DNA from: Chiloscyllium plagiosum
Taxonomy: Eukaryota
DNA length: 64,000 bases
Assembly: GCF_004010195.1 (NCBI RefSeq)
Contig: NC_057752.1
Span: 6,791,003 to 6,855,002 of the forward strand
Reading direction: 5' to 3'
The notes beneath the pieces are model-generated. The model saw only the letters and a program-made list of their open reading frames with translations. It was not told the DNA's origin and did no database searches. Below are positions 7,079 to 64,000 of this stretch, in pieces; position 1 is the stretch's first letter; each line of letters begins with the position of its first letter. The position numbers and the translations under genes were made by a program.

Positions 7079-7080
7079 CT

Positions 7081-7415: not shown

Positions 7416-8063
7416 ATACTTAAATAAAAAGGGTATTTCAACCACCACCTGTCAAAGCAAAATGGATTTGGATTTTGGGGTAGGGATTTTTGAGACTCTC
7501 TAAATTAGGAGGAATCTTGTTTATTTTTGAGGTTTTTTTTTCCCCACTGTCAGGTGGAAGAGTGAAATCTGTCAATTTTGGTTGTATTTGATTTCAATTA
7601 TTTTTGTTCCAGTGCTAATTCAAAATTGTGTTGCTGATCTACTGTCTAAATTTGGCTTGTCTTAAATTGTCACCACCTCCTTTGTAAGGTTATGATTTCA
7701 AAAATGCTTTACCTGATGTATTCATTATGATGATGAAACATGCAATACATTCAAGAGTTTGACAATCCTTGATTTGGAACTTAAACTAAATCAATATTGA
7801 CTTGAAGGCTGTACATGTTTCTGAAAGAATATTGAAACATCTTTCTTTTAATTGGACTGTTGTCTTTGTAATAAAATTTGTAAAATGACAATTTCAATTC
7901 CTGAAACCAAAATTGTTAACTTGGGTAGGGATTTCATTTACAGTATTTGATGTAACAGAATTGGTTAGACCGGGGGGAGGGGAGAGAGTTGCCTCTAACC
8001 TCCCTAGCTTACTGATTTATTTCTGTTATTCTCTGATTTTAAATCCTAATCCTTTCTTTTCAG

Positions 8064-8788
8064 GTGATAAACACATACGCCTCAACCTAACTGATGTTCA
8101 CTTTGAGGTGAACTCCAATTTTGAGAAGGATGTAGAGATGATGGCTCCTCACCCCATGGACCAGAATTTGGGCAGTGCACTGTCCTATCTAGGAACAGAA
8201 GCAATGAGGCCTCCGAGGCTCCCCATGACGAGTTGCACACCGGAGATCACACCAGTGATCAGTGCTGTCTACTCCCATGTACATCCCATCCACAGCCGAG
8301 CTGAGGCACAGGGAAGTAGAGAGGCAGCAGAAGGCCACGAAGATATGCCAGAACATCTGAATTCTAGAGCAAAAAACCAACTGGTAGAGCTTGGAGTGTC
8401 TCCAAGCAATGGCTGCCATGATTCCACAGATACAGAAAGCAGCCATGAAGACAGGAATGCCCAAACTTTCCCCAGTAACTATGCCATAAGGCAAAGCCCG
8501 GCCTATTCCAAAGAGGACCCAAAGGCACAGGAGCCCCCATCATCTGCCAAAGCAGCTCAAAGCTCAGCCAAAGAGGTCCTAAGAGTCTTAAATGAAGATG
8601 GAGAACAAGTTAAGGCTTATAAGTGTAACCACTGCCGGGTTCTCTTTCTTGACCACGTAATGTTTACCATTCACATGGGTTGCCATGGATTCAGAGACCC
8701 TTTTGAATGCAACATCTGCGGCCATCACAGCCAGGATCGGTACGAATTCTCCTCACACATTGTCAGAGGAGAGCACAAAGTGAGTTAG
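8064..8788 (+). CDS. IKZF4: IKZF4 (Eos) terminal coding exon with two C-terminal C2H2 dimerisation zinc fingers
   Basis: Acceptor cctttcttttcag ends at 8063. Encodes GDKHIRLNL...SPSNGCHDSTDTES...SPAYSKEDPK...YKCNHCRVLFLDHVMFTIHMGCHGFRDPFECNICGHHSQDRYEFSSHIVRGEHKVS-stop. RLP..C..E.TPVIS.VY, SREA.EG and SPAY.KEDPK are Eos-type motifs, and the neighbour RPS26 supports orthology. Confidence 0.96.
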
Positions 8789-23782: not shown

Positions 23783-23976
23783 AAACAAAGAATTGTGAAT
23801 GCTGGAGATCTGAAATGAAAACGGAAAATACTGGAGAACCTCAGCAGGTATGGCAGCATCTGGAGAGAAAAACAGTTAACATTTCGAGAAGAGTAATTAG
23901 ACTCAATGTTAACCCTGTTTCTGTCTCCACAGATTCTACCAGAGCTGCTGAGTTTCTCCAGTACCTTGTTTTTGTT
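23783..23976. mobile_element. Short palindromic Penelope-derived element
   Basis: Arm ctggagaacctcagcaggtatggcagcatctggagagaaaaacagttaac is mirrored by gttaaccctgtttctgtctccacagattctaccagagctgctgagtttctccag. Confidence 0.75.
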
Positions 23977-25757
23977 GACAATACTGAAAGTTACTTTTCA
24001 GGTTTGTCAGTGATGTTATATCTATTACTTCTTACAAAGTGTTTACGTATTTCTGGAAAAAGACATTTAATTGTCAAAAGCTTTTCAGCTTTGTCCAACA
24101 GGACAAAGACGTAAGAAATCGGTTTTATTGTTATCTACGATGGTTGGAATTTAGCACTTGAATCATCTTGATTCTGATTTAGTCACAGACTGCTAAAATT
24201 CAAAAAGCTTCCATTTGTACCATTGATGGTTCAACAGAGTAGTTGGCCCAAAAGACCAGGAATAGGTCCCAGATCTACCTTTGATCTTTGCTAAGCAAAA
24301 GCTGGATAATGGGTCAGCCTAATTACAATTGGCCTTGGTTGATGAAAGTTTAAAAGTTAACTGGATTGGTTCCCACTCCTATTTTGTTTGTGATTGTCCC
24401 AGATAGTGATGCTTATTGGAAGAGTTTTTGTATGGACTCCAAGTGTAGACTGAACTGGGTCTAGCTTTTTTTTTCCCCCCGTGGTTAAGTGTCCTGCTCA
24501 CACTTGATGCTCTTAAGTGAACAATGACACCCTTGACGAAACTGACTTCCATCAAGAAGAAAAATATCAACTCTGTTTAGGTCCTCTTTATATTTTAAAT
24601 GTTTCTATTTGGGAGGTGTACATTATTTTCACAGAAAAACAAAGAACTTCTAGCCTATTCCACCCTTCCTTTCTGTCTAAGTATACAATTTTTTTAAATG
24701 ATTAGACTTCATAGTGTTGCTCAGGTAGAACATGGATTGCAGTCTATTGTTTTCCAGGGTCCTGCTTCAACCTGAACATGATAGTTTGCCCATCACTAAA
24801 AAGGCAAACTTATGGAATCGATATTATGATTCAGAGTAAAATTTAACCACCACCTATAAATGAATCAAGAGACAGACATTTTCAGTCTATTTACCCAACA
24901 CAAAATCAAAAATGAAAATTATTTTTCTCTCATCAAAACTGATATTCACATTAGTTGTTTTCCTCTACCTTTTGCAGGTGATTTTATAGTACTCAGGATG
25001 CATGTTACTTAGAGTTAGGTTTGCTTTTTCTAGAAAACTTTTACTTAGAATATTTATGAAAGATTTTATAAAATGCTGAAGTTGTCATTGATATAGTGTG
25101 GTCCTTCAATGAACAGAATCTGAAACAGCGCACCACTGACCATGTATGTGCTTGACTGGTTTTGGCTAGATTGTTTGAGCTCATCATCAAAGTACCTAAT
25201 AAATATACCTTTGTGACCCTGTGCAAACAACTGACACCCTACCAGTAATACAAATAAAAAGTCTCCTTGTCTCAAGGAATTCCAACGGCTTAGAGTTTTT
25301 ATCCTAAACTGTCGTCCAAAAATGTCATTAACTTTGGATTGCTCCAGTCCCTGCCATTCATCTAATTGTTTGTTGATTTTCTGTCTGCTTGTTATGGGAC
25401 AAGGATGGTCATAGTCAATGTTGGCTCTTGTCATTCCACAGGAGCAGGGTGTTCCCATGAAGCATCCCTTGCAAAGAGAATCTGTGACTTCTGAGGTCCA
25501 AGTAAAATTTCCATCTCTAACTGAGCCAGAATTGTGCTCCAGGCTCTAGAGAACATGTTGCAACTAGGTAGAAACACACCATCTGCAGGTGGTTTTGAAG
25601 ACCACATTTTATGGGTAAGTTGGGTGATTTATTTTTCTCAATGTTATGTAATTTTAATAATAGCTGTATACACTAATCTGGCTGAAGAAGGTTGTATGGG
25701 ATGTATGAAAAAGAAGGGATGTATGAAAATAGTTTGAAACTGATTGCTTTGTGGTTT

Positions 25758-27279: not shown

Positions 27280-27740
27280 TTAAAATTCACTCATGGGATG
27301 TGGGCTTTGCTGGCTGAGCCAGCATTTATTGCCCGTCCCTAGTTGCCGTCAACCACATTGCTGTGGGTCTGGAGTCATATGTAGGCCAGACCAGGTGAGG
27401 ATGACAGATTTCTTTCCCTGAAGGACATCAGTGAAGCAGATGGGTTTTTCCAACAATCAACGATGAACCATGGTCATCAGTAGATTCTTAATTTCAGTTT
27501 TTTTTTTAATATTGAATTCAAATTCTACTGTGGTGGATTCTAACCCAGGTCCCCAGAACATTAACTGAGTTTCTGGATTAATTTTTAAAAAAATACAACT
27601 GCGGATGCTGGAAATCAGAAACAGGAGCAAAAACAGAAATTGCTGGGAAAACTCAGCATCTGTGGAGAAAAAGCAGTGACCTTCCTTCAGAACATGGATT
27701 ACTATTCTAGCAACAATACCTCTAGGCTATCGTCTCTCCA
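27280..27740 (-). mobile_element. Second-family SINE interrupted by a Penelope-end fragment (about 27590-27695)
   Basis: Reverse complement of the 25758-26095 family, split by ctgcggatgctggaaatcag..ctcagcatctgtggag. Confidence 0.75.
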
Positions 27741-34030: not shown

Positions 34031-34832
34031 TCTAGTTTTATGGTCTTTATAGTCAATTAAATACTTTCGAAGTGCAGTCAGTCTTTCACTGAAGATGCTT
34101 TAATTTTAACATTTCTTTGTTTTAAAATGTTTCCATGGTCTTACCCTTGCTTTTTAATCTCCACCAGCCTTACAATCCTCTGAAATCTCTGCAATCTTTA
34201 TTTCGGTCTCCTGAGCTTCTCTGGTTTTAATTGCACCACCATTGGCAGGCTGCATTCAGTTGCCGAAACTGATTCCCTTTTACTACTTTGTAAACATTTT
34301 CCCTCTTTAAGACAATCATGATTTCAGTTATTAAACATAATATCTTGTGTTTCTTGGTGTCAAATTTTGTTTAATAAACCCTCCAAATCCCCTGTTCTGA
34401 CTAAACCCTTGCATTCATGCTCTAATATCATGTGATTTTGTTTCTGTCCCTGTGGAGATCTTGGGGATTCTTCCACCCACAGCCCCGCAAAAGAAATAAT
34501 GAGAAGATATATTATTGGGCATGTGGGGTGGCCAATTTAGATGTACAGTGCATTCCTTACAATATTTAACAGTACAGATTGCATCTAAGTTTGCACTGTA
34601 CTCGGCACTATTGGCATTGATAGCCTGAGAGGTTTTACAAGAGTTCGAGGCCCTTACTGTATAATAGGGGTGTGTATTCTGTACCCTCTTCCTGGTGAAC
34701 CGACTCAGTTTTTCATTATGATAAACAGACTATATAAAAGTTGTTGCAGCGAGTTTTGAGAAGTTGTTGTGTAAATACAACGACGTGTGGTACAATTCAA
34801 CTGGAAAGTTATCAACCTGAAACGATAAAGTG

Positions 34833-35066
34833 AAAGCAAAACACTGGATGCTGGAAATCTGAAACGAACCAACAATGTTGAATATACTTAGCAGGTATGG
34901 CAGCATCTGTGGAGAGAGAAAACAGTTAACGTTTCGAACCTGAAATGATACTTCATCAGAAATGAAAACATTTAACTGTTTTCTCTCTCCACGGACGTTG
35001 CCACTCCGGCTACATTTCTCCAGCACACTGTTTCGGATTTCCAGCCTCCGTAGTGTATTTTGCTGT
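34833..35066. mobile_element. Palindromic Penelope-derived element directly upstream of the RPS26 promoter
   Basis: agcaaaacactggatgctggaaatctgaaac..ggcagcatctgtggagagagaaaacagttaacg is mirrored by ttaactgttttctctctccacggacgttgcc..tttcggatttccagcctccgtagtgtattttgct. Confidence 0.8.
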
Positions 35067-36145: not shown

Positions 36146-36379
<234 letters not shown>

Positions 36380-36471
36380 TAGTGAATCTGAGGAATTTCT
36401 TATATCTTTGACACTGGTTTTGTTCATAATTGTTGTATGCTGTTGCTTAGTTTGACTCTCTTTATTTCCAG

Positions 36472-36602
36472 CATATGTGCTGCCCAAGCTGTATGTAAAA
36501 TTGCACTACTGTGTCAGCTGTGCTATCCACAGCAAAGTGGTGAGAAATCGCTCGCGAGAGGCCAGGAAGGACCGCACTCCACCTCCACGTTTCAGGCCAG
36601 GC
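36472..36602 (+). CDS. RPS26: RPS26 coding exon 3
   Basis: tttatttccag acceptor. Encodes (A)[43 protein letters not shown]. Donor GTAAGT; 131 nt. Confidence 0.98.
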
Positions 36603-36694
36603 GTAAGTATTGAAGCTCCTGCTAAATGTTGAACTGGTGGCACTCTGGGTCTAGGTATGGCTATCTAGTGAAGTCACTTTACACCCATGACTTG

Positions 36695-36875
36695 TTTAGA
36701 TTAGATTAGATTACTTTACAGTGTGGAAACAGGCCCTTCGGCCCAACAAGTCCACACCGACCCACCGAAGCGCAAACCACCCATACCCCTACATTTACCC
36801 CTTACCTAACACTACGGACAATTTAACATGGCCAATTCACCTGACCTGCACATCTTTGGACTGTGGGAGGAAACC
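36695..36875 (-). mobile_element. 5'-truncated HE1-like SINE in RPS26 intron 3
   Basis: (ttaga)n tail, then cagtgtggaaacaggcccttcggcccaacaagtccacacc..ggccaattcacctgacctgcacatctttggactgtgggaggaaacc. Confidence 0.85.
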
Positions 36876-38083
36876 CTCTTAGCCAAATGGTGATTCTGTT
36901 TCACTGGGGCTGTGATTCTGGTTCCAAGGTGGATTTGGAGGCTCTTGAAAGGTTATTGTAACTGATAATATAAATTAGGAGCAAGAGTAGACCGTTGGCC
37001 CCTTGAGTCTGCAATGTAATCATCATTAGGCCCCTAATTCCAGATTTTATAAATTCAAATGCCATCTTTGCCATGGCAGGATTCAAACCTGGAATATTAC
37101 TAGTGCTCTGGGGATAGTACTAGGCTGTCACTACTTCAATTTGAAATCCAGTTGTTTACTAGTTCAGTCCTTAAAGGTGTCTACTCATTTGTCTGTATTT
37201 AGTTTCACTGAAAATCACTATCACAGACATTTCCCAATGACTCATATTGGTCCTAAGGTGCCTATAGTTCCCAGTTTTCTTTCTGCCTCCTTTCTTAAAT
37301 AGTAGTGTTCCACTTTGACAGTGAAACCCTGCAACATTCATTACCATTGGGGGCTGTAGAAGCAGTCATGGTAGTTTTGGAATGTGAAGGTTTTGGCAGT
37401 AGGTAGGGATTGTGGGTACAGGTGTCAAAACGCTACTTGGATAAGCGTTTGCCCCTAGTTAAGTGAGGGGAACTTGGTTGTGGTACCAATTGCAGTTTTC
37501 TGTTTTCCTCTGGGCAGTGCTAGGCACTTAAAGAAATGTTCTGGAGTTTGGCTTTGGAATTTTTCAAAACTCTCCTTCATCTTCCTTTTTCCCAGAAAAA
37601 GATCCATTGGGCTGGGAGAGAACGTGACTTGAGCAGAAAGGCAACCTGCTTCCAACTCCCACTTAGTATTAATTTTGCCAAGGCCAGCTTGGAGGATATA
37701 GTACATTAGGCAAATGTATTAGTTAAACGTGTTAGTGAAATCAATGCATTAATTTAGTCCTGGTCCACTCCCTTTGTCCTTAATGATCAAAACCTAGGGC
37801 CTTCTCTCTCTCGAGCATAAATTATTGATGTATTGCTTTGTTTTTGTTTATTCAGTAAGATTGTTTCTTACCTTGACTTTTATTTGAAATTTGTGCTTAA
37901 ATGTGCCAGGCTTAGTCTTTGTGAAAATAATTCTCTGAAACACTTGGACATAGGTACTGTGTGAATGATTGTTAAGCAAACCTTGCATCCTTTATCTTGT
38001 GATAGGTGACAATTTGAGGAGATAAAACAAAAAAAAACTTCATATTATTCGTGGGTTATGACCTATAATATCTTTCTTTTCAG

Positions 38084-38122
38084 GCCAACATCCCACGTGG
38101 TCCTCCTCAAAAGCCGATGTGA
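38084..38122 (+). CDS. RPS26: RPS26 coding exon 4 (C-terminus and stop)
   Basis: tctttcttttcag acceptor. Encodes ANIPRGPPQKPM-TGA, matching the ...PPKPM end of vertebrate eS26. Total CDS is 351 nt (116 aa). Confidence 0.93.
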   Translation, partial: ANIPRGPPQKPM

Positions 38123-38154
38123 GCATTGCTAGATCCTATAAATTGATTTGAAAG

Positions 38155-38160
38155 AATAAA
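38155..38160 (+). terminator. RPS26: RPS26 polyadenylation signal
   Basis: AATAAA 32 nt after the stop, followed by GT-rich gttttgtgtg. Confidence 0.88.
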
Positions 38161-40013: not shown

Positions 40014-40262
40014 TATTGCAGAGCTGAAAATATGTTGCTGGAACAGCGCAGCAGGTCAAGCAGCATCCAGGGAACAGGAGAATCGACGTTTCGGGCATAA
40101 GCCCTTCAGGAATGAGGAAAGTGTGTCCAACAGGCCAAGATAAAAGGTAGGGAGGAGGGACTTGGGAGAGGGGCGTTGGAAATGTGATAGGTGGAAAGAG
40201 GTCAAGGTGAGGGTGATAGGTCAGAGTGGGGTGGGGCGGAGAGGTCAGGAAGAAGATTGCAG
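40014..40262 (-). mobile_element. Penelope-like element 3' end with degenerate hammerhead motif
   Basis: gttgctggaacagcgcagcaggtcaagcagcatccag..aatcgacgtttcgggcataagcccttcaggaa; same end type as at 51410, 61007 and 62990. Confidence 0.8.
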
Positions 40263-41276: not shown

Positions 41277-42000
41277 ACAAACAGACCCTTCAGTCCAACT
41301 CGTCCATGCCGACCAGATATCCTAACCCAATTATAGTGCAGTACAGGCTCTTTGGCTCTCGATGTTGCGACAACCTGTGAAACCAATCTGAAGCCCATCT
41401 AACCTACATTATTCCATTGTCATCCATATGTTTGTCCAATGACCATTTAAATGCCTTTAAGGTTTGCTATTGTTGTAGGCAGGGTGTGCCATGCACTTAC
41501 TCTGTGTAAAGAACCTACCTCTGACATCTGTTCTATATCACCCATCAATTTAAAGTTATGTCACCTCATTCTAGCCATCACCATCTCACTGTGCACCTAA
41601 TCTGATCATCTCGTATGTCTCTATTCAGTCGCCCCTCAACCTTCTCTTTAACAAAAACAGCCTCAAATTCCTCCGCCTTTCCTCCATACCATCTAGTCCC
41701 ATTTGCCAGCACTTGGCCCATCACCCTCTAAACCTTTCTTATTCAGATACCTATCCAGATGCCTTTCAAATGTTGAAATTGTACCAGCTTCCGCCACTTC
41801 CTCTGGCAACTCATTCCATACACGTACCACCCTCTGTGTGAAAAGGTTGCCCCTTAGGTCCATTTTATATCTTTCCCCTCTCACCCTAAACCTATGCCCT
41901 CTAGTTCTGGACTCCCCCACCCCAGGGAAAAGAGCTTGACTATTTACCCTATCCCTGCTCATGATTTTATAAACCACCTCCTATAAGGTCACCTCTCAGC
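41277..42000 (-). mobile_element. CR1 3' fragment with a second CR1 subfamily nested at about 41333-41690
   Basis: ORF ..GESRTRGHRFRVRGERYK..FTQRVVRVWNELP. Its tail is split between cctaacccaat and ctagtccc by the tail of the 28260-type family. Confidence 0.85.
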
Positions 42001-43723: not shown

Positions 43724-44062
43724 ATATTTTAGTAGAAAAACATGGAGAAAGTACCTTGTTTTTAAATTTTATATTATTTCAGAGGGTGTGCAGGACTGGA
43801 GAGACCTGTGAGTATGTGTGCATAAGTCATTAAAGGTGGCAGGGCAAGTAGAGGGAGCAGTTAATGAATCCCAAGATACTGTATATTTTATTAATAGCTG
43901 AGTACAGGAGCAATAAGGTGCTGTTGAGCTTGTGTAAGATAACAATTAAACCTCAGCTAGTGTTGTATATAGTTCTGTATGCCACATTTCAGGAAGGATG
44001 AAAATGCAGAAGAAGTTTGTGAAAGTTTCGCGTCCCTGGATCTAAAGAAAATACATTAGAGA

Positions 44063-44465
44063 AGTTTTCCCTGGAGCATTGGAGGCTGAGGGGTTACCTT
44101 TATAGAGATTTTATAAAATCATTAAGGGCATGGATAGGGTAAATATACAGTCTTTTCCCTGTGGTGGGGAAGTCCAGAACTAGAGGGCATGGGTTTAGGG
44201 TGAGGGGGAAAGATTTATAAGGGACCTAAGGGCAACGTTTTCACACAGAGGGTGGTGTGTGTATGGAATGAGCTGCTAGAGGAAGTGCTGGAGGCTGGTA
44301 CAATTACAATATTTAAAAGACATCTGGATGGGTATATGAATAGGAAGGGTTCGAGGGATGTGGGTCAAGTGCTGGCAAATGGGACTAGATTAATTTAGGA
44401 TATCTGGTTGGCATGGACGAGTTTGACTGAAGGATCTGTTTCTGTGCTGTACATCTCTATGACTA
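44063..44465 (+). mobile_element. Young CR1 3' fragment nested in an older CR1
   Basis: Close match to 54620-55010 (agtccagaactagagggcat..gtatggaatgagctg..ctgtacatctctatgact). Confidence 0.88.
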
Positions 44466-44599: not shown

Positions 44600-46680
44600 A
44601 AAGGAGGGACACTGAACTTCATGTATTAGGTAAGATCCTATCAGAAATGGAATAAAAAGAAGAGCAATGCAAAGGAAGAAGAAAGGAAAAGAGAATTGGA
44701 AATAAAGTTTGAATTTGATTGTGAGGAGAGGGAATAACCAAAGAAAAAAGAAAAATGGGGAAATTGAATGTATGATGCTTGAACTCCAATTAATGATCGA
44801 ATCAGACAACAGCTAAGAGTAAAGGGAAAAAGAGATCATAACTCAGGATGATTCAGATTCCAGTGAATGAATGATTTAACTAGAAATCTATGGTTAGTGC
44901 TTAAATATATGGAGGTAGAGTTGGAAGATATTTCACCTCATTTTAAAAAGGTACTTGGACAGACAAAGCGGTCAAAAGATGCTTGGTTCTCTGTGCTGGA
45001 GTGTTTCTGATGGTATAGCTATGAATATACTGTATAAACCAATTTGTCAGAAGAACAATCTGCAGACTATGAAATGGGTAAAAAATATACAATTCAATGT
45101 TTTTGAACTTGTCCCTGAAGCTTATTAGTTTAAAATGTAAGATGCAAGGACAAAATCTAATCACGCATTCTTAGAATATACAAGAGAAAAAGAAATTGAG
45201 ATCAATAGTTTCAGTCTCTGACGTTAGAGAACATTTTTGAGTGCAAGGGAAATTATGATTCTAAAGGAATTCAGAAATAGTACCCAAGTAAACCACAAGG
45301 CTTATTTAAATGAGCATCACATATTAAAGGTCAGAGAATAAGCAGTTCTTGCAGATACTGATATCCCATAGACTATTACGTGCATGTAGATGGTCATATG
45401 GGAATCTGCAAAGAAATTGGAGGAATAGAAACTTTGCAGATGGAAGAGTTCAGTTTAATACCTGCAACAAAGGAGCACCATAATAATAAAGGAGAAAGCC
45501 TATAATCTAAAAACAATATAAAGAAAATAATACACTTCCATTGTAATAAGGCTGGACATACAAAAGCTAATTGTTGGCAGTTAAATGGGAGACTAATTGC
45601 AGTACTAAGAATGCTTAAGAAATTCTCAGAAAATGTGTATTAGGAAAGAAAATGAGTGTTAAAATGATGTCTATTAAAAATGAAGCAATGAATCTGGATA
45701 ATCAGGAATATGTTTCCTCACCTTTTGGTCAAAATTCAGACCATGAGAGGTTCTGAATATTTTATTTCAAAAGGAGTGGTAGTTCCTTATTCTTTAAATT
45801 GAAGAGAGAAACTAATGGACACTAGTTAATCACTTGTTGGCTAATTATACAACTTTTCTTCTAGAGAGCCAGTGAAGGAGAAAATAGTATCTGGAGGTAT
45901 ACACCATGTCCATCAGGTAGTAGTCCCATCTGAGTATCATAACAAACATTGAGTGGCTCATTTGGTATTAATAAAACATGGGTTAATATATCAAAACATT
46001 CTTATTGGCCAAGATTACATAAAGATGTCATTTTTTGCCAAACATGCAATACATAGGGTAATAGGGAAAACCCATCTACACCTCTAATTCTGATATTAGC
46101 TTTCAACAATCATGTTAATGGGGTCTTAATAGATTATGTAGGACCCTTACCTAAAACTAGGAGCAGGCATCCGTATATTTTAACAATTATGAATGTGATT
46201 TCCTGAAGCAGTGCTTTTGGGGAAAATTATGGTAAAAGTGGTCATGAAAATGTTTTTCGGTTTTTTTAAATGAGATGACACAAAATACAATCAGATCAGG
46301 GTTCACATTTTATGTGACAAATATTCAAAGAGATAATAGTTTAGGAGTAAAACGACTTATGTCTTCAGTTTAATACCTGGAGTATTGGAAAGATGGCATT
46401 AAACTTTGAAGAGCAGGATCACAACTTATCAGAAATGTCCTATTGAGGAGAATAAAGGAATTCCTTTGTTACTGTTTACTGTAAGATATGTCCTAAATGA
46501 GTTCATGGGATTCAGTCCTTTTAAACTGACATGAACATGAGGTGAGAGCTGCTTTAATTGATTGAAGAAAAAAATGTATAAACAAAGCTCGGAGACTACA
46601 CTTCCAGCCTATGTTTAAAAGTTTCAGAAAGAAACTAACCAAGCCGTGAGAGTTGCCAAAAAACATTTGTAGTGAGTACT
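44600..46680 (+). mobile_element. Decayed Gypsy (Gmr1-like) LTR retrotransposon: gag and integrase remnants
   Basis: gag motif FELVPEAY at about 45100. Integrase remnants HQVVVPSEY, HFGINKT, YWPRLHKDV, CQTC, VLIDYVGPLPKTRS..YILTIM and IQSDQGSHFM at about 45900-46320, with many stops and frameshifts. Confidence 0.8.
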
Positions 46681-46827
46681 CCAGACAATAGAGAATCAGC
46701 TAGTATCAATAAAATGTTAGATAATACGACGGGACTATAGTCAGGATAGACCTGTAGAGCTGCCTCCTCTGTTTAGCACGCAAGAACAGCGTGTGTTGTA
46801 ACTTAATCAGGTTGATACCTTGCTTTG

Positions 46828-46930
46828 GGGCAAAAATAGAAATTGCTGGAAAAGCTCAGCAGGTCTGGCAGCGTCTGTGGAGAGAAGTCAGAGTTAACGT
46901 TTCGGGTCCAGTGACCCTTCCTCAGAACTT
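46828..46930 (-). mobile_element. Penelope-end fragment carrying a well-preserved minimal hammerhead motif
   Basis: gaaattgctggaaaagctcagcaggtctggcagcgtctgtggagagaagtcagagttaacgtttcgggtccagtgacccttcctcagaact. Confidence 0.8.
46892..46929 (-). ncRNA. Minimal type I hammerhead ribozyme motif
   Basis: The minus strand reads AGUU-CUGAGGA-A-GGGUC-ACUG-GACCC-GAAA-CG-UU-AACU: both core boxes, 5-bp stem II, 4-bp stem I, self-complementary ACGU in place of stem III, and a GUU triplet. Confidence 0.7.
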
Positions 46931-47092
46931 CATTTTGAGTCATCTGGTCTGAAGATGATTTTCAGTGCTCGATATTCTGGTATTATTCCACAACTGGTCA
47001 CTAGATGGAGCATCAGCAAAAGCGAACGGTCCCAATGGGGCCCACTGCATCGGGGATATCAGGGGCACCAACCCATATTCTAACATCAAATC

Positions 47093-47418
47093 CTGCAAAT
47101 GCTGAAAATCTGAAACAAAAACAAAGTAGTGGAGAAATTCAACAGGGCTGGCAGTATCTGTGGAGAGAAAAACAGTTAATGTTTTGAGTCTGGTCCTGAA
47201 GAAGTCATATCAGACTTGAAACGTTGACTCTGTTTCTGTCTACACTATGATCTTTTACTATAAATTCTGAGTCCTATCCTGCCCCCTTAGCTACCTGACG
47301 GAGCACCGCTCCGAAAGCTTGAACTTCCAAATAAACTATAACCTGCCGTGTGAATTTTAATTTTGTCTACAGATGTTGCCAGACCTGCTGAGTTTCTTCA
47401 GCATTTCCTGTGTTTGTC
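47093..47418. mobile_element. Palindromic Penelope-derived element with a different retroelement end nested at 47245-47363
   Basis: Inverted arms as at 23783 and 34833. The insert is flanked by TGTCTACA (47237-47244, 47364-47371). Confidence 0.75.
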
Positions 47419-48899
47419 TCCCATTCTACCAGTCCTATGGGAATATTCTTTCTCTTTATTGTGTAATAATTAAGCAAAGCTTTTTTTTCTTTGAGCACTT
47501 TTTCAATATCAGCCGCAATCGTTCACGAAATAAGATCTTCGTTTGTAGTTTAATAGCTCATGGCATTTTCATTCTTGTCCTCCGGGTGTCGCTAATGAGG
47601 TGAGCTTTTATCGCCCAATTTTAATTTCCCTGATTTGACGCAAACTTTCTTCAGTGTCATTGAATGATGCAGCTGGAGGGTGGTCATTCGGCCCATCAGT
47701 CCTCCTGAGTCCGAATATGTGTGTGACAATGCAGTTTCATATAGCCCAGATTGGAATTCCTTTGCTGAGGTTATTAGTTAAGTCGGTAGGGCTCCTTGGA
47801 TGCTGCCTGAACTGCTGTGCTCTTCCAGCACCACTAATCCATTTTCTGAAACACCCAACTTTTCGTGATGTGTATCTTTTTTAAGCTTGGTTGCAGCATT
47901 TCATCTTCAGATTTTTCTAAACGGAATTCAAAATCACAAACCACTAACGCTCATATTGGATAGTACCAGTCCGGTACTATAACCGTGGCAGTATAGCATT
48001 GTTCATATGTTGGAGGTGACATTTCACTCTTCCTAATCAATTTATAAAAGTATTCCATTTTTTGAAATAAAACGTTGGCAGTGCCCTCAGTTCTGAAAGT
48101 CATACCGGACTCGAAATATTTGTTTCTCCACAGATGCGGACTTTCTCTTACAGTCTATGTATAACAGCGCCTTGCTAATTCAGTTCACTGAGTATCTATC
48201 GATAGTGACTATACTTCATATGGGTGTTAAGCACTTTGGGACATGGATGGCGGTACATAGATTGCACGTATGTCTGTTTTAAACCATATAAACTGGGCAG
48301 TCTAGGGTTTCCCCTTGGCTGGTGCAATAATGGAGGGCTGACGGTTGTCCTCCGTGGTTCTCAACCGGGGAGGAATAAAATCAGCCAATGTTCACACTCC
48401 TGAGCCTTCCCCTGCTCAATCACAGGACTGTAATCCACTTTTAACCCGCGTCTTAAGGACAGTAGCGAGAGCAAGAAATGTAGGGAGCTACATTAGCGGC
48501 ACTGTTTTTAGTTGATTGTATATGTGTATTTAATGTACAGCATGTTAGTTCGGGGCCATCGTGCAGAAAGTGTTACATTTCAGGATGTAAGAAACGTGAA
48601 TAGCGATTGCAAATGTAAATCAGTTTGTTCATGAATCCAGCAAGAATCCCCACTCCTTTCATTTCAGCTTTCAATTTCCTTGGGCTCCCGGCATTTAAAT
48701 AAACTGCAAACTAATGTATTTGCTATAAAGGGATTGATGAAGTTGGCAACTTTTTTTTGGTAAGTGTTTCTCAAAATGCGACCGTTTAAATAATCGGAGT
48801 CTCTTCACAATATTAACAGCTCAATTCCCATCTACTTTCGTAAATTGTCCCCTTGCTTTCTGAAACGACTGTAGATATCTTTGTGGTGCAGTTTCACAC

Positions 48900-49241: not shown

Positions 49242-51409
49242 GTAGGTGGAGTCGACCCTATGCTTTCTGTCTTTTTAAAAAATCTACAATTGTAATCTTA
49301 TTTCTGTTTTGTGTCCCAAAACGGTGCTCTCAAACTTTTTGATGAAACTAACTTGGGGGCGTTACTTCTTTCCGGGTGATTTTAAAAAGTATCTTTTTGT
49401 AAAAGAGGGAAAAATCTAATGACAAGCCTTTTATTTGGAGACGGAAACTGGGAGTTATAAAAACCTGTTTGCTTAGGATTTTTGCGCAATCACCTAACGA
49501 TAAACTGAGGCTGTTGTGTGGGAGCGCCTGCTTCAGGTTGGCTGCAGTTTTCCATGGCCTGACTCTCGGTGTGTGAACAGGTCGGAAAGATCAGGTTCAT
49601 GGGCTATCAGTTCAAGCTCATGTGAACGTGAAGTGAGCACCAACCTCGGGTAACCTTCGAAGTTCACGCGGACTTTTCCCCAAAGCCCCCCTCTTGCTGG
49701 GGTAGAGCTAAGGGTGGGATTTCGCGTGTGACAGGCTGCAAGTTTGACCGCACTGGGTCACAAGAAATGTTGAATTATTTCAGCTTTTATCCCCCTAATG
49801 TGTGTATAGGGAATTGAACTGAACTGCGAAGTGGCTCTTTCCAGAAGCATTCAGCCGAGTTCTCGTTTAAAGCCATTTCATGATGTTTCGTGTCTATTTC
49901 ATCCCAGCAGGAGCCTCCGGGCGCTTCTGTAGGTCGAACAATGTTGCCAATTTTCCCCATCTCCCTTTCCCCGAAATCGTGCCTTTTTTTATTCTTCCGC
50001 TGGCAGAGTCACTGACACTATGGGATTCAGTGTAGAGAGCAACTTGGATCCTCGCTGTAAGTTTTAGACTGTTTCAACCCCTGTGCTCATGACACTGACA
50101 AAGTGAACTTGTGATTCACAAGAGCGACAGAAGAGCTCAATGAATCCTGGTCTGTCTGTTTTCTAGCTCTTGGGAGACCTGTGCACAGGAGTTGGAGTCA
50201 GAGTTACAAAGTTGTATTTTTAAAAAAAGATAATAGCCACTGCGGTTCTGTAAATACTTGTCCCTCTTTGCAAATCAGTTCGTGCACTTTACTCTTCCAA
50301 ATAATTCACTGCATGGTGAGATACTAACTAGAAAGATGCAAATCTTCCTGCATTACAAGAACACTTATTCTGTTTATTCATGCCTTGTATGTTTCAACTC
50401 TTCTGGGAATATCAATAGTTCCTTTTAAATGTTAATTGAGTGCTGCCAGTGAGTTGGAGGTTTCACTTGTTTAAGTGAACACTTGAGAGGACAGGTAAAT
50501 ATCTTCTTCATGGATCAGGTGAACTTTGATTTTGAATTTTTGTTATTGCCTGCAGAAACTTGCAAGTTGAACCCTTTCTTTCCAAAGCTGCCCTTTTCTG
50601 TTACAATAAAGGTGCTGACCTGTTTAACTAACACTTTGCTGGGATACACTGAGGTGGTGTGGTTCACAGAGTTGCATTCACACTTTTATGGCTTTTTCCA
50701 AGTGGAATTGAAAACATTTCTCTGTCTCTGGAAAGTGTTTTAGGGTATCTCTCTCTATGCTAGAGGTTCTATATGAATGTAGATTGTGTTGGTGATGCAG
50801 CCAACTGCCACTTGTTGGAACACAGGAGCACAATCTAAGCAAGTGTGGTCCAGTGACCCATCCAGTTTGTTCTTTCTGCAGCCTGTATATATCACACCCT
50901 GTTTATTTCTCATCCTGTTCAATCCACAATCTAATAAATGCTCAGTTAGGAGGCACCAAGTGACGTGCTCCTGTCGAGGAGATGAAAATCCAACCAGGGA
51001 GTCATGTCTGAAGCATCATGGGTGGCACCTCCAAGAGAACATGATGCCCACTTAGCTTTCTGGCAGTTGGTACTATGATCAGCTGAACCTGGCACTTTCT
51101 GCCACAGTATTGAAAGGACCCAATCAAAGTCCTAAATGTTCTCTCTGACTGTAGCTTTGGGATACTTTCTGTTCCCATGAATGAATGAAACAAGGATTTA
51201 AATACACTAAATAAATGCAAGTTGTTACATCCATTCATTGTAAGAGTTGTTTCTTTATCTGGTATTTTATAAAGGCAGCATTTCGTTCGGGACTCTGTAT
51301 GAAATGTGATTTGACTCAGACAAAACACTAGATACAATGTAGCACAATTTCCTCTTCAAGACCACAACTTTGCATAAATCTCCATGAACGAGAAACTCTA
51401 ATCTCCAGG

Positions 51410-53420
51410 ACTGCAGATGCTGGAGATTAGAGTCGAGAATGTGGTGCTGGAAAAGCGCAGCAGGTCAGGTAGCATCTGAGGAGCAGGAGAATGGACATTT
51501 AGGGCAAAAGCCCTTCATCAGAATGGGGCTGTGAGGCAGGGGGGTGGGGCTGGGGGAAGGTAGCTGAGAGTGTGATAGGTGGAGGTAATGCTGATAGGTC
51601 GGAGGGGAAGTAAGAGCAGATTAGTGGGAAGGAAGATGGACAGGTGGGACAGATCATGAGGACGGTGCTGAGCTGGAAGGTTGGAACTGGGATAAAGTAG
51701 GGGGAGGGGAAATGAGGAAGCTGGTGAAATCCACATTAATGCCATGGGGTTGGAGAGTCCCAAGGTGGGCAATGAGGCGTTCTTCCTAGAAGTATCGGGT
51801 GGTGAGGGAACAGCGGTGGAGGAGGACCAGGGCTTGGATGTCCTTTGCGGAGTGTGAGAGGGAGTTGAAGTGTTCAGCCATGGGGCGGTGGAGTTGGTTG
51901 GTGCAGGTGACACGGCGATGTTCTCTGAAGCTCTCTGCGAGTCGGTGTGGAAGGAGGTGTAGTTCAGATAGCTGTGGGAGTTGGTGGGTTTGTAGAAGAT
52001 GTCAGTGTTGAGTCGGTCACCATTGATGGAGATGGAGAGATCCAGGAAGAGGAGGGAGGTGTCTGAATGGTCCTGGTGAACTTAAGGTCGGGGTGAGATG
52101 TGTCGGTGAAGCTGATGAACTGTTCAGCCTCCTCGTGGGAGCACAAGATGGCCCCAATGCAGTCATCAATGTCGCGGAGGGTAAAGGTGAGGAATGGTGC
52201 TGGTGTAACTACGGAAGATAGAGGGGGCCCAGGGAAACAAAAGTCTTGGAGGTGGTGGAGAGCATAGGTTGTGCCTTGAATGTATGTGGGGAGTTCCTGG
52301 ACTGAGGGGATAAGACAGTATCGAGGTAGGTGGAGATGAGTTCGGGGAGGCAGGAGCAGGCTGAGACGATGGGTCAACTGGGGTAGTCAGGCTTGTGGAT
52401 TTTGGGCAGGAAATAGAACTAAGATTGGAAGCTGTGTGTGGAATATCCCCTGAGGTGGTGAGGTTGTGTACAGTCTGGAAAATGATGGTTTGGTGATGGG
52501 GGCTGAGGTCGTGGTCGAGGAGGCAGTAGGAGGAGGTGTCTTTGAGTTGGCGCCTGGCTTCAGTGGTATAGAGGTCAGTGCACCAAACTACCTCTCCCCC
52601 CATTCCCCCCCCCCCCCCCCCCCCCCCCCACCCACCACTGTCCGCTGGTTTGATGGAGGTTGGGGTTGGAGCAGAGGGAGTGGAGGGCTGCGCGTTGTGA
52701 GGGTGAGAGGTTGGTGTGGGTGAAGGGAGTGGACAGATTGAGGTGGTCACTGTCCCAGCAGCAATTGGAAATAAACTCCTCGACCACAACCTCACCTCCC
52801 ATCACCAAACCATCATCTCCCAGACCATCCACAACCTCATCATCTCAGGGGATCTCCCACCCACAGCTTCCAACCTCATAGTTTGCGAACCCCGCACCGT
52901 CTCCCCAAGATTCACAAGTCTAACTACCCCGGCTGACCCATTGTCTCGGCCTGCTCCTGCCCCACCGAACCCATCTCCACATACCTTGATACTGTCCTAT
53001 TCCCCCTGGTCCAGGAGCTCCCCACATATATTTGGGACACCACCTATGGCCTCCACATCCTCCAAGCCTTTCGTTTCCCTGGCCCCAACACCTCATCTTC
53101 ACCATGGACATCCAATCCCTCTACACCTCCATCTGCCATGACCAGGGCCTCCAAGCCCTCCGTTTCTCCCTCTCTTGATATCCCCACAAGTATCCTTCCA
53201 CTGATGATCTTATTCCTTTGGCTGAACTGGTCCTCACCCTCAATAATTTCTCCTTTTGAATCCTCTCACTTCCTCCAGACCAAAGGGGTAGCCATGCGCA
53301 CCCATATGGGCCCCAGCTATGCCTGTCACTTTGTCGGCTACGTAGAACAGTCCATCTTCCGTACTTACACCAGCACCATTCCCCAACTTTTTCCTCCACT
53401 ACATTGATGACTGCATCAGC
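51410..53420. mobile_element. Penelope-like retroelement remnants in inverted arrangement (minus 51410-52770, plus 52775-53420)
   Basis: RT motifs FLQTKGVAMRTHMGPSYACHFVGYVEQ, DIDDCIG and HPDLKFT; the 3' end with hammerhead-like motif lies at 51410-51525. Confidence 0.85.
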
Positions 53421-54129
53421 TGTCATCTTTCAGACAAGACCCATCTGCCCTCTACCCATCAGCTATGACCTATTTGAAAAAGATGAGGATAATTCTCCCT
53501 GGTGGCCTGACCAATATTTCTCTCTTGATCAACATCAAAAAATCAGACAATGTGACCATTATCAAATTGTGCACAGGATCGAGAATTGTTACAGTGCAGA
53601 AAGAGGCCATTCATCTCATCACTGGCTTTCCAAATGTCTAGACCACCTAGTGGCACTCCCTGGCTTCTCTCTACAGTCCTTCCCATAGTCTTTCCTTTTT
53701 TTTTAAAACAACAATACAATTTTGTCTTGAAAGCCTCAATTTGAATTTGCCCCACCATACTCTCAGGCTGTGCTTTCCAGACCCTAACCACATACTGTGT
53801 GGGAAAAGAAGGTTTTCCTTATGTCACCATTGCCGTTTTTGCTAAATGAAATGAATTAATAAATCACAATTCAATTATATCCATTCGAGGTATAAATGTC
53901 CTTTTTTTTTCCAGACCCTTTGGCTCTACCCAGAGGTTCAAAGATGGGCCATTCCATTGTGTAAGTTTTCTCACTGGCAATGTGGCCTTGTAAGATGAGC
54001 ACCAATTATCTTTTAACAATAATTATTCCAAGCTTGTTGGATTTGCTCTCACTTTAAGATTGTTTACTAGTTTCTTAATATCATCTTATCTTCCATTTAA
54101 CCTATTACTATCCAAAGTAAAAGTTATTA

Positions 54130-54230
54130 ACAAGAACAGAAATTTCTGGAAAAATTCTGCAGGTCTGGCAGCATCTGTGGAGAGAAAGCAGAGTGAACAT
54201 TTTGGGTGCCATGACCCTTCTTCAGAACTG
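54130..54230 (-). mobile_element. Penelope-end fragment with degenerate hammerhead
   Basis: Same family as 46828-46930. Confidence 0.7.
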
Positions 54231-54330
54231 AGTAAAGGTTGTTATATGACCTAAAACTAAAGGTACTCTCTCAATCACGTGAATTGTGCAAATAGATATT
54301 TGCAAAAAGGTCACCAAGAAAAATCAGTTT

Positions 54331-55010
54331 CAAAGAGACCTTGGAGTGCAGGCTTATAGCTCCTTGAAAGTAGAGTCGCAGGTAGATAGGATAGTGAAGA
54401 AGGCGTTTGGTATGCTTTCCTTTATTGGTCAGAGTATTGAGTACAGGAGTTGGGAGGTCATGTTGCAGCTGTGCAGGACATTGGTTAGGCCGCTGTTGGA
54501 ATATTGTGTGCAATTCTGGTCTTTCTATCGAAAACTTGAAAGGGTTCAGAAAAGGTTTACAAGGATGTTGCCAGGGTTGGAGGATTTGAACCAAAGGGAG
54601 AGACTGTACAGGCTGGGGCTGTTTTCCCTGGAGCGTCGGACGCAGAGGGGTGACCTTGTAGAGGTTTATAAAATTATGAGGGCCATGGATCAGGTAAATA
54701 GACAAAGTCTTTTCCCTGGGGTGGAGGAGTCCAGAACTAGAGGGCATAGGTTTAGGGTGAGAGGGGAAAGATATAAAAGAGACCTAAGGGGCAACTTTTT
54801 CACGCAGAGGGTGGTACGTGTGTGGAATGAGCTGCCAGAGGATGTGGTGGAGGCTGGTACAATTGCAACATTTAAGAGGCATTTGGATGGGTATATGAAT
54901 AGGAAGGGTTTGGAGGGATATGGGCCGGGTGCTGGCAGGTGGGACTAGATTGGGTTGGGATATCTAGTCGGCATGGATAGGTTGGACTGAAGGGTCTGTT
55001 TCCATGCTGA
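54331..55010 (+). mobile_element. Young CR1 LINE 3' fragment with an open ORF2 C-terminus
   Basis: QRDLGV..LVRPLLEYCVQFWS..LERVQKRFTRMLPGL..FFTQRVVRVWNELP..GRWD-stop, followed by the 3' UTR. Confidence 0.93.
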
Positions 55011-56941: not shown

Positions 56942-57441
56942 NNNNNNNNNNNNNNNNNNNNNNNNNNNNNNNNNNNNNNNNNNNNNNNNNNNNNNNNNNN
57001 NNNNNNNNNNNNNNNNNNNNNNNNNNNNNNNNNNNNNNNNNNNNNNNNNNNNNNNNNNNNNNNNNNNNNNNNNNNNNNNNNNNNNNNNNNNNNNNNNNNN
57101 NNNNNNNNNNNNNNNNNNNNNNNNNNNNNNNNNNNNNNNNNNNNNNNNNNNNNNNNNNNNNNNNNNNNNNNNNNNNNNNNNNNNNNNNNNNNNNNNNNNN
57201 NNNNNNNNNNNNNNNNNNNNNNNNNNNNNNNNNNNNNNNNNNNNNNNNNNNNNNNNNNNNNNNNNNNNNNNNNNNNNNNNNNNNNNNNNNNNNNNNNNNN
57301 NNNNNNNNNNNNNNNNNNNNNNNNNNNNNNNNNNNNNNNNNNNNNNNNNNNNNNNNNNNNNNNNNNNNNNNNNNNNNNNNNNNNNNNNNNNNNNNNNNNN
57401 NNNNNNNNNNNNNNNNNNNNNNNNNNNNNNNNNNNNNNNNN
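56942..57441. other. Assembly gap (500 N)
   Basis: Run of exactly 500 N, flanked by repeat fragments; the true gap size is unknown. Confidence 1.
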
Positions 57442-57930: not shown

Positions 57931-57941
57931 TCTAAAAATTC

Positions 57942-57969
57942 CTGATGAAGGGCTTTTGCCCGAAACGTC
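57942..57969 (+). ncRNA. Minimal hammerhead ribozyme motif at the start of a short Penelope-end insertion (about 57938-58033)
   Basis: CUGAUGA-A-GGGC-UUUU-GCCC-GAAA-C-GUC; stem I is imperfect. Confidence 0.6.
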
Positions 57970-58089
57970 AATTTTTCCTGCTCCTCAGATGCTGCCTGAC
58001 CTGCTGTGCTTTTCCAGCACCACTCTAATCTAGACAATAAATATTCACAGCCAGCGAGCAACACAAACATCACACACATTACTATTAAA

Positions 58090-61000: not shown

Positions 61001-61006
61001 CAACTC

Positions 61007-62990
61007 AGAGTCAAGAGTGTAGTGCTGGAAAAGCACATCAGGTCAGGCAGCATCCGAGGAACAGGAGAATCAAAGTTTTGGGCATAAGCTCTTCATCAGG
61101 AATGAGGCTTGTGGGTCAGGGCTGAGGTTTGGGGGAAGATAGCTGAGAAAGCGATAGGTGGATGAAGGTGAGGGAGAAGACGATAGGTCGGGGGGGGGAG
61201 AAAGAGAGAAAGTGTGATAGATGGGTCCAGAGAGCGGTGCAGAGTTGAAGGCTTGGGACTGAGATAATGTGGGGGGGGGGGGGGAGGGGAAATGAGGAAG
61301 CTGTTGAAATCCACATTTATCCCAAGGCAGAATATGAGGCGTTCCTCCTCCAGGCGTCGGGTGGTAACAGTTTGGCGGTGGAGGCGGCCCAGACCTGCAT
61401 GACCTTGACAGAGTTGGAGGTGGCATTGAAGTGTTCTCTGAAACGATCTGCAAAATGGCGTCCAGTCTCCCCGATATACAGGAGACCACACTGGGTGCAA
61501 CGGATGCAGTAGATGACATTGGGAGAAGTACAGGCAAATTTCTGACTGATGTGAAATGATCCCTTGGGGCCTTGTACAGAGGGGAGGGGAGTGGTGTGGG
61601 CACAGGTTTTGCACTTCCTATGGTGGCAGGGAAAGGTACTAGGAGTGGGGGGGGGGCTGGTGGGGGGTGTGGACCTGATAAGGGAGTCACGGAGTGAATG
61701 GTCTTTTCGGAACGCTGACGGTGGCGCGTGAAGTGGAGGAAATGCACTGGAGGACATCGTCAACCACGTGGGAAGGGAAGTTGTGATTGTGGAAGGAGGT
61801 GGCCATCTGGGACTTTGAGGTGGAATTGATCATCCTGGGAACAGATGTGGCGGAGGTGGAGGATTTGGGAATAAGGGATGGTAATTTTACAGGAGGTAGG
61901 ATGGGAGGTGTAGTCTAGGTAGCTGTGCGAGTCAGTAGTATATGCCTGTGGTTAGTCAGTTGCCAGAGACGGTGATGGAGGGGTGCAGGAAGGGGAGGGA
62001 GGTTTCCAAGTTGGTCCAGGTGAATTTGAGGTCAGGGTGGAAGGTGTTGGTAAATTTGACGAACTGTTCAACCTCCTCGTGGGAGCACAAGATGGTGCCA
62101 ATACAGTCATCGATGTAGCAGAGGAACAGGTGGGGGTGTGGTGCTGGCGAAACTGTGGAAGATGGATTGTTCCTCATAACTGACAGAGGCAGGTGTAGCT
62201 GGGTCCCATGTGGGTGCCATAGCTACCCCTTTGGTTCGGAGGAAGTGGGAAGATTAGAAGAAGAAAGGTGCCACTCCTAGCACCTTTCCCTGCCACCATA
62301 GGAAGTGCAAAATCTACATCCACACCACTCCCCTCACCTCCAACCAAGGCCCCAAGGGAGCCTTCCACATCCATCAGAAATTTACCTGTACCTCTACCAA
62401 TGTCATCTACTGCATCCGTTGCACCCAGTGTGGTCTCCTCTATATCGGGGAGACAGGATGCCTTCTTGCGGATCGTTTCAGAGACATCTCTGGGACACCC
62501 GCACCCACAAACCCCACGGCCCCGTGGCTGAACGCTTCAACTCCCCCTCCCACTCCATCACGAACATGCAGGCCGGGGCCTCCTCCACCACCAAACCATT
62601 ACCACCCTAGAGGAAGAATGCCTTATATTCCGCCTTGGGATCTTGCAAACACATGGGATAAATGCAGATTTCAACAGTTTTCTCATTTCCCCTCCCCCAA
62701 CATTATCCCAGTCCCAAGCCTCCAACTCTGCACTGCCCCCCCCCCCGACCTATTATTATCTTCTCCCTCACCTTCATCCACCTATTGCTTTCTCAGCTAT
62801 TTTCCCCCAAAGCCCACCACTTCCCATTTACCCCTCAGCCCCGACCCACATGTCTCATTCCTGATGAAGGGTTTATGCCCGAAACGTCAATTCTCCTGCT
62901 CCTCAGATGCTGCCTGACCTGTTGTGTTTTTCCAGCACTACACTCTTCGCTCTGAGCTCCAGCATCTGCAGTCCTCACTTTCTCCATCAT
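61007..62990. mobile_element. Penelope-like element with inverted terminal copies of the GIY-YIG/3' region (minus 61007-62265, plus 62268-62990)
   Basis: Zn-linker and GIY-YIG motifs C...KCKTC..FACTSPNVIYCIRCTQCGLLYIGETGR...RFREH appear on both strands. RT motifs YIDDCIG and GTHMGPSY are present, and hammerhead-like motifs lie near both outer ends. Confidence 0.88.
62861..62888 (+). ncRNA. Minimal hammerhead ribozyme motif in the Penelope 3' end
   Basis: CUGAUGA-A-GGGU-UUAU-GCCC-GAAA-C-GUC. Confidence 0.55.
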
Positions 62991-62999
62991 TCACAACTC

Positions 63000-64000
63000 A
63001 ATCATAGAGCTGTACCTCATGAAAACAGACCCTTCGGTACAACTCACCCAAGCCAACCAATTAATCTAGTCCCATATCCTTCTAAACCCTTCCTATTCAT
63101 ATACCATCCAGGTGCCTTTTAAATGTTGTAATTGTACCAGCCTCCACCACTTCCTCTGGCAGCTTTCCGTAGATGCACCACCCTCTGCGTGAAATGGTTG
63201 CTACTTAGGTCCCTTTTAAACCTTATCTCTCTCATCTTAAACCTATGCCATCTAGTTTTGGACTCCCCCCACACCCTGGGGAAAAGACCTTGTCTATTTA
63301 CCCTATCCATGCCCCTCAAGATTTTATAAACTTGTACAAAGATCACCCCTCAAGCTCTGATGCTCCAGGGAAAACATCCCCAGCCTATTCACCTCTCCCT
63401 ATAGTTCAAATCCTCCAACCCTGGCAACATCCTTGTAAATCTTTTCTGAACCCTTTCAAGTTTCACAACATCATTCAGACAGCAGGGAGACCAGAACTGA
63501 ACACAACATTCCAAAAGTGGCCGAACCAATATCCTGTACAGATGCAACATGACCTCCCAAACTCCTATACTCAATTCTCTGACCAACAAAGGTAAACATA
63601 ACAAATGAATTCTTCACTATCCTGTCTACCTACAACTCTACTTTCAAGGAACTATGAACCTGCATTCCAAGGTCTCTTTGTTCAGCAACAATCTCCAAGC
63701 CCTTACCATTAAGGTGTACAAGTCCTGTCCTGATTTGACTTTCCAAAATGCAGCACCTCTACACTGAACTCCATCTGCCAGTGCTCGGCACATCAGCCTC
63801 TCTGATCAAGGTCCTGTTGTAATCGGAGGTAACTTTCTTCATTGTCCGCCACACCATCTGCCAACTTATTAACCAGGCCTCCTATGTTCACATCCAAGTC
63901 ATTTATATAAATGACAAAAAGCAGTGGACCCAGCACCGATCCTTGTGGCATTCCACTGGTCACAGACCTCCAGTCTGAAACTCAACTCTCAAGCACCACC
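63000..64000 (-). mobile_element. CR1 LINE 3' fragment running off the window end
   Basis: [42 protein letters not shown] at about 63915-63950 on the minus strand. Confidence 0.92.

Follow-up and report, generated by a model that had tools for sequence, protein, structure and literature searches.

What is a complete-looking ribozyme motif doing in a shark chromosome, which element left it there, and could this copy still act? The motif lies at 46892–46929 on the minus strand of the 64,000-nt stretch of Chiloscyllium plagiosum contig NC_057752.1 analysed here (the window). The best explanation, which we hold at a probability of about 85%, is that a complete minimal type-I hammerhead heads a likely pLTR fragment of a Neptune-type Penelope-like element (PLE), and that retrotransposition left this old and isolated copy behind as a by-product, probably an inert one.

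The minus strand from 46929 to 46892 reads AGUU CUGAGGA A GGGUC ACUG GACCC GAAA CG UU AACU, and the boxes, stems and palindrome named in the preliminary description were all found in it. Stem I (4 bp, AGUU/AACU) is formed by 46929–46926 and 46895–46892. The box CUGAGGA (46925–46919) is followed by an extra A, by stem II (5 bp, GGGUC/GACCC, loop ACUG) and by GAAA (46903–46900), and the ACGU palindrome occupies 46900–46897. Both the CUGANGA and the GAAA-N-N-UH boxes are intact, the extra nucleotide stands after A9 (offset 1), and G10.1-C11.1 closes stem II. N17 is a U (46896) in a GUU triplet; by hammerhead numbering we take the predicted cut to fall after GUU, between 46896 and 46895. The dimer-type architecture proposed earlier is seen in the palindromic 15.1-16.1 positions and the missing stem III, and the cleavage itself is a prediction.

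A full descriptor (both boxes, stem II of at least 4 bp, a palindromic 15.2/16.2 pair, NUH and stem I of at least 3 bp) matched the window only once, at the focal motif, which agrees with its description as intact and the best in the window. None of 200 dinucleotide shuffles of the window matched this descriptor. When the stem I demand was dropped, three window positions matched (46925, 57942 and 62861), and one of the 200 shuffles gave a single match. A covariance model built from 30 motifs outside the window returned 34 window matches, the top seven of which spanned rough E values from 5.5e-9 to 0.022 and were, in rank order, 57935–57975, 46890–46931, 62854–62894, 40085–40108, 34922–34965, 51488–51527 and 47190–47231. 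The focal motif ranked second in the window by this model, which is not independent in the core. The matches at 54190–54231 and 61068–61103 scored at background level (E 0.21 and 0.54). The eight matches at E≤10 in an Rfam search of the window included no hammerhead, as expected because the motif has no stem III; the stable stem III and Rfam model match of a canonical type I hammerhead are both lacking in the focal motif. The folding energy of the monomer was not unusual (z -0.78), and a PDB sequence search (query P0002) gave no match.

About 12 window loci belong to related hammerhead families, A, B and C. Family A has a GUU triplet and a stem II of the GGGUC/GACCC or the decayed GAGUC/GACUC type. 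Family B has a GUC triplet, GGGC/GCCC in stem II and a stem I with a bulged C. The palindrome is ACGU in both, and AGCU in family C, found at 47295 with GGAGC/GCUCC in stem II. The fragment that hosts the focal motif, a family A1 piece of 99 nt from a dispersed repeat, likely a pLTR (46831–46929, minus strand; alignments and contigs of three species), is 77–81% identical to family B copies over 63–82 nt. Its closest paralogue, 54131–54229 (minus strand), is 84% identical over 99 nt, has the same start and end, and lies 7.3 kb off in a decayed state, with both core CpGs mutated.

The relatives listed in the preliminary description fared unevenly. At 57942, within a short tailless family B copy with a GUC triplet (57938–58026, plus strand), and at 62861, the boxes are intact and stem II (GGGC/GCCC) is paired as claimed, but stem I pairs only with a bulged C. 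The motif at about 47196 is among the covariance top seven, but it lies on the plus strand and does not pass the descriptor, with an additional U ahead of GAAAC; its box 1 starts at 47196, in a region where two decayed family A2 copies meet head-to-head, as an inverted pair, at the ribozyme (47098–47245). The copy at 47295–47345 (plus strand) has the claimed paired stem II, GGAGC/GCUCC, but its box 1 is damaged (CUGAC) and GAAAG/AGCU replaces GAAAC/ACGU, and it was therefore assigned to a separate family, C. In this family, paralogue reads extend with a further CCUGA before the matched part, and A stands at 47299 in about 95% of the depth, which indicates that box 1 is intact in family C at large. 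Decayed motifs had been placed near 34930, 40085, 51495, 54200 and 61075. The first corresponds to box 1 at 34959 (minus strand) in an inverted pair joined at the ribozyme (34828–35033), where both boxes are kept and stem II is broken; it ranks in the covariance top seven, as do the copies near 40085 (a short family B copy with 3 nt of box 1 deleted, 40020–40127, minus strand) and 51495. Those near 54200 and 61075 fell into the covariance background, yet 54131–54229 and 61099 are repeat copies by alignment. Copies absent from the earlier list are those at about 23884, in an inverted pair of decayed copies joined at the ribozyme (23778–23983), and at about 27690, in a family A copy whose stem II and GAAAC are hit by internal deletions (27624–27695, minus strand), and three inverted half-copies.

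The stem II covariation that had been claimed is real (GGGUC/GACCC, GGGC/GCCC and GGAGC/GCUCC), but the window holds only about four families of it. A stronger test came from stem I outside the window, and it upheld the view that covariation supports a real structure. A core-only scan of metagenome contigs, with stem I and N17 left free, gave at least 123 loci (about 900 estimated). Among the matches listed, stem I pairs over at least 3 bp in 60 of 87 distinct variants, against a mean of 16.6 and a maximum of 28 in 1000 shuffles of the partners; relatedness among the 87 variants inflates this test, and the pair types differ widely. When the partners were slid by 1, 2 or 3 nt, only 1, 18 and 2 were paired. 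N17 was C, U or A, and not G, in 120 of 126 matches listed. A set of 30 motifs had 91% of cells paired (0 of 500 shuffles), which is not an independent test: they were picked by hand from 127 matches in favour of a paired stem I, the search pattern itself prescribed three of the stem II pairs, and the covariance model shares its origin with them. The 123 outside loci listed match the window only over 28–34 nt of the ribozyme, and they are therefore distant families rather than copies. A family-specific pattern found no match in the metagenome contigs, and the core pattern none in viral contigs. Two outside loci, L039 (1501–1579) and L046 (1501–1587), carry two intact hammerheads head-to-head, 25 and 31 nt apart, with the junction at the same position as in the short inverted pairs of the window.

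The Penelope-like origin suggested earlier is supported by family B, which is tied to reverse transcriptase (RT) and GIY-YIG frames, by the tail and inversions, and for the focal family by homology. Three of the five family B copies continue upstream into broken coding frames, and the RT and GIY-YIG frame ends 196 nt before the ribozyme at 51521 and 180 nt before that at 62861. Frame 61317–61829, the only one of 12 window frames above the Pfam cut-off, matches GIY-YIG (PF01541, E 1.9e-5) and carries the linker CHHRKCKTC (CX4CxxC) before the endonuclease; none of the 12 matched an RT in Pfam. This frame had two matches among 568 longer candidates, named from stingray and bamboo shark. Longer relatives (94 matches among 1,976 candidates) carry RT PF00078, some of them GIY-YIG as well, and 47 of the 94 have the linker pattern. 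The RT pieces in the window match PF00078-bearing relatives, and the longer RT plus GIY-YIG relatives map colinearly on 51407–53447 and 61004–62975, where the window frames are broken; the family B remnants have the order of RT followed by C-terminal GIY-YIG in one frame. The first of these regions is a long Penelope-like remnant, mainly on the minus strand, with RT from 52787–52287 onward, the endonuclease at 51944–51717, the decayed hammerhead at 51521 with a tail, and an inverted RT piece (52779–53447, plus strand) at the 5' end. The second is an inverted insertion in which both arms hold RT/GIY-YIG remnants and terminate in a family B hammerhead, one decayed and tailless (61099, minus strand) and one with intact boxes and a tail (62861, plus strand).

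Both long insertions are inverted pairs, and inverted insertions number five in all. An extra 3' tail is present in six of 12 copies and absent from the other six, including the focal one. These features fit PLE anatomy as described in the consulted part of one study, with a pLTR, an inverted partner and an optional tail, and a CX2-5CxxC linker marking Neptune and Nematis (PMC8557442); the tail reflects two internal RT start sites, according to the available text of another (PMC11167929). Outside the window, a related frame accompanies 23 of the 123 loci listed; by their coordinates, 20 of these frames are upstream and on the same strand. At one locus, L006, an open frame of RT, CX4CxxC and GIY-YIG ends about 130 nt before the motif. 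The 3' ends of the outside loci listed form two groups, near 60 and near 108 nt. No family A copy was attached to a coding frame in the window or among the outside loci listed. The terminal-repeat location is direct for family B, and for the focal family it follows from homology, tail and inversions. The PLE status of family A likely holds on its homology to family B and its tail and inversion signatures, and the focal repeat is likely the terminal repeat (pLTR) of a Neptune-type PLE. Family A would then have its own coding parent. In that parent element, the missing stem III would arise when two motifs of a tandem transcript paired by their ACGU palindromes, and the dimer would cut after GUU, weakly and probably only with the protein of the element, as tested relatives suggest.

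Minimal hammerheads in PLE terminal repeats have been known as a kind since 2014. The focal motif is of the same kind as those reported in metazoan PLE pLTRs by Cervera and De la Pena (2014, PMC4209133); the accessible text of that report and one supplement searched make no mention of sharks. Stem II has 5 bp here and 7–8 in the schistosome motif described there. The window resembles the Neptune PLEs of Craig et al. (2021, PMC8557442), as far as the consulted part describes them, in RT followed by C-terminal GIY-YIG, a CX2-5CxxC linker, 5' truncation, an inverted partner and an optional 30–40-bp tail. Nematis has the same linker, and the Neptune assignment here was made without a tree against named references; unlike in Neptune, only family B is physically tied to a frame here. 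The anole Poseidon element PAc (Frangieh et al. 2024, PMC11167929, in its available parts) likewise has a minimal hammerhead in the pLTR and two 3' end classes matching two internal RT start sites, but it belongs to another clade and its frame starts inside the ribozyme. Its activity, protein-assisted and dispensable in vitro, was measured, and cleavage by the focal motif is a prediction. Animal non-LTR retrozymes, reported in one chondrichthyan genome, are likewise short non-coding pLTR-derived units with a type I hammerhead (bioRxiv 10.64898/2026.07.22.740005, partial text). They are defined by tandem units with at least two intact motifs, while the focal copy is single. A literature search covering few subscription papers returned no study of hammerheads in shark PLEs, nor any on a clustering of copy ends at the ribozyme.

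The focal fragment has the ribozyme at its start, extends about 66 nt behind it and lacks the 3' tail. No target duplication of at least 5 nt was found in its 46–50-nt flanks. We infer that reverse transcription started at an internal pLTR position about 66 nt behind the ribozyme and halted at the ribozyme 5' edge. Contigs of two other organisms, B and C, cross both junctions of the fragment (records 9, 14, 17 and 22); the insertion is common to three species and therefore predates their split. The three species are closely related at this locus, with contigs differing at 4 to 12 positions over 218 to 502 nt, and the focal core positions of the other two are swamped by paralogues. Directly before the motif, a 33-nt flank (46933–46965, minus strand) resembles the inversion junction at about 47182–47214, 250 nt away, with a score reached by none of 2000 random windows. 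This stretch is possibly a scrap of a second copy; a local duplication or one composite insertion would be further options. Exons at about 36200–38160 (plus strand) are presumably those of RPS26, named from the protein sequence, and the focal site sits about 8.7 kb behind and antisense to this gene. No exons between the two were recognised, in an inspection made without a dedicated search. The last exon of an Ikaros-family zinc-finger gene, which we take to be most like IKZF4, lies at 7889–8788 (plus strand).

The focal copy is probably inert. Core mismatches numbered 9 in 117 cells against 27 in 312 downstream (p = 0.85) in nine of 14 aligned rows (27690, 47295 and partial arms left out), a test of little power. 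The core differences fall mostly at the two CpGs, and both CpGs survive in five of the nine box-bearing copies; the focal copy is therefore not exceptional. The special status implied by the preliminary description is not supported by these counts: the copies decay neutrally, and the focal one is a survivor that is still intact. The gain in monomer folding energy from stem I is only 0.6 kcal/mol. For the dimer, the double hammerhead came to -16.1 kcal/mol while the best fold reached -24.0; in a 76-nt context the two values were -17.5 and -37.1. These nearest-neighbour energies leave out core contacts and proteins, and by them a focal dimer is predicted to fold otherwise than in the active form. 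The full descriptor found no intact partner on the same strand in the window. In a weak poly(A) single-cell run, of which about 2 in 100 reads were read, 1,252 reads fell on repeats and only three of them were at least 99% alike; there were none on the focal flanks, and no pile-up of read starts or ends was listed. Tested relatives had no monomer activity and low dimer activity, according to the accessible text (PMC4209133). The anole motif cleaves with protein, cleavage is dispensable for insertion in vitro, no read ends lie at the site, and the C3/G8 mutants behave as in a hammerhead (PMC11167929, available parts). One of nine Xenopus dimers cleaved in the part consulted of the retrozyme study (bioRxiv 10.64898/2026.07.22.740005).

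A different account takes the ribozyme-headed units of about 100–135 nt not as random truncations but as a short non-autonomous class of their own (retrozyme monomer or SINE-like), whose RNA would start at the ribozyme 5' edge and be copied by PLE protein. We regard it as unlikely. The 46925 and 54225 copies do have identical starts and ends, box 1 is preceded by 4 nt in the 57942 copy and by about 17 nt in the 40110 copy, and all three short inverted pairs (23.9, 34.9 and 47.2 kb) have their junction within or next to the ribozyme. In each run, the matches of about 3,000 contigs stop at the ribozyme 5' edge (46927–46929), with low agreement beyond (0.34–0.40); but the reference itself ends at 46929, so longer copies also break there, and a common upstream stretch appears in the loose-end letters of all three species. 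Among the 98 outside loci listed, 24 end within 20 nt upstream, against 9 at 21–40 nt and 10 at 41–80 nt, with 13 and 19 in wider bins and 23 reaching the locus end, although local alignments also stop where subfamilies diverge and so mimic truncation. The continuation of three family B copies into the frame speaks against such a class, and no tandem units, which the retrozyme definition needs (bioRxiv 10.64898/2026.07.22.740005, partial text), were found at the focal locus, with its single full match in the window. The available sources describe 5' truncation for most PLE insertions.

It is likewise doubtful that the ribozyme is a fixed 5' boundary in PLE copying, either as the transcript start or because reverse transcription stalls and switches template at the folded hammerhead. 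The lead for this reading is the gathering of copy starts and inversion junctions at the ribozyme, seen in the window and at the outside loci listed, and the reservations just given apply to it as well. If true, internal priming 65–110 nt downstream would flood shark genomes with tens of thousands of ribozyme-headed inserts of 100–135 nt, and hairpin-like inverted pairs would likewise arise from the hammerhead boundary. On this view the number of intact minimal hammerheads in sharks could exceed the 4,000–9,000 reported for other vertebrates, and the positions of copy ends would reveal how reverse transcription of PLEs comes to an end.

We think it improbable that the motif is a chance resemblance, or a non-catalytic family motif serving only as a folded protein-binding or boundary signal. 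The absent monomer fold signal and Rfam match would suit this idea, as would the poor cleavage of tested relatives (PMC4209133), the eight of nine Xenopus dimers that did not cleave (bioRxiv 10.64898/2026.07.22.740005) and the dispensability of cleavage for insertion in vitro (PMC11167929), each in the parts available. Chance is excluded by the descriptor shuffles, the pairing at outside loci and the covariance model. A non-catalytic signal is opposed by the keeping of every catalytic position across distant families while the stems covary, and by the protein-assisted cleavage and hammerhead-like C3/G8 mutants of the anole motif (PMC11167929, available parts). That selection kept the focal copy as a host device cleaving or ending a read-through transcript is highly improbable, for its intact core with both CpGs and its presence in three species are set against the intact CpGs of five of nine box-bearing copies, the close relatedness of the three species at the locus, the lack of a dimer partner, the antisense position about 8.7 kb behind the nearest gene recognised, and the absence of flank reads.

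The focal copy, likely a truncated PLE terminal repeat, is one of very many. The very high copy number claimed earlier is upheld by the 52,052, 63,806 and 54,318 contigs (one run each, three species) that match 46500–47700 at 80% likeness, and by a summed depth of 10^5–10^6 over the repeat against about 10 on the flanks; contig counts and depth are no copy number, and this segment holds several families. The one full motif in 63.5 kb of the window corresponds to 16 (0.4–88) per Mb and the three box-intact motifs to 47 (10–138) per Mb. By extrapolation from one window, a poor sample, the density and shark total may exceed the 4,000 in coelacanth and 9,000 in Xenopus given in the accessible text of PMC4209133. 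A single motif matters little, being of a kind long known and in a copy that is probably dead. In shark genomes the copies number at least in the thousands and fall into several families that differ in stems and palindromes, and they form a large natural set for asking what role PLE hammerheads have and whether copy ends cluster at the ribozyme.

Several minor features were observed beside these copies. An assembly gap of 500 N (56942–57441) lies 500 nt upstream of the 57942 motif. Many LINE-type 3' fragments with RT C-terminal frames, at 41691–42000, 44061–44462, 54283–55009 and 63002–63680, belong to an abundant element. The family C piece passes without a break into the downstream portion of a copy of the A type (47366–47416), making 47295–47416 (plus strand) a nested or chimeric insertion. 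Among paralogue reads over 47293–47336 (plus strand) in run X21, 235 continue past 47336 with 11 family letters and then an A-run just behind the AATAAA that follows the family C motif. They agree at 0.82, are strongly one-stranded, and 147 have a 5' flank in common; some other family C copy may thus provide a poly(A) site, about 45 nt behind its hammerhead core, or the A-run may be genomic. The head-to-head pairs fold as long hairpins (34875–35026, z -9.4; 23855–23945, z -3.1; 47150–47260, z -1.8). The miRNA-type Rfam matches at 34875–35026 are spurious and arise from the inverted pair; if transcribed, these hairpins would be possible sources of double-stranded RNA.
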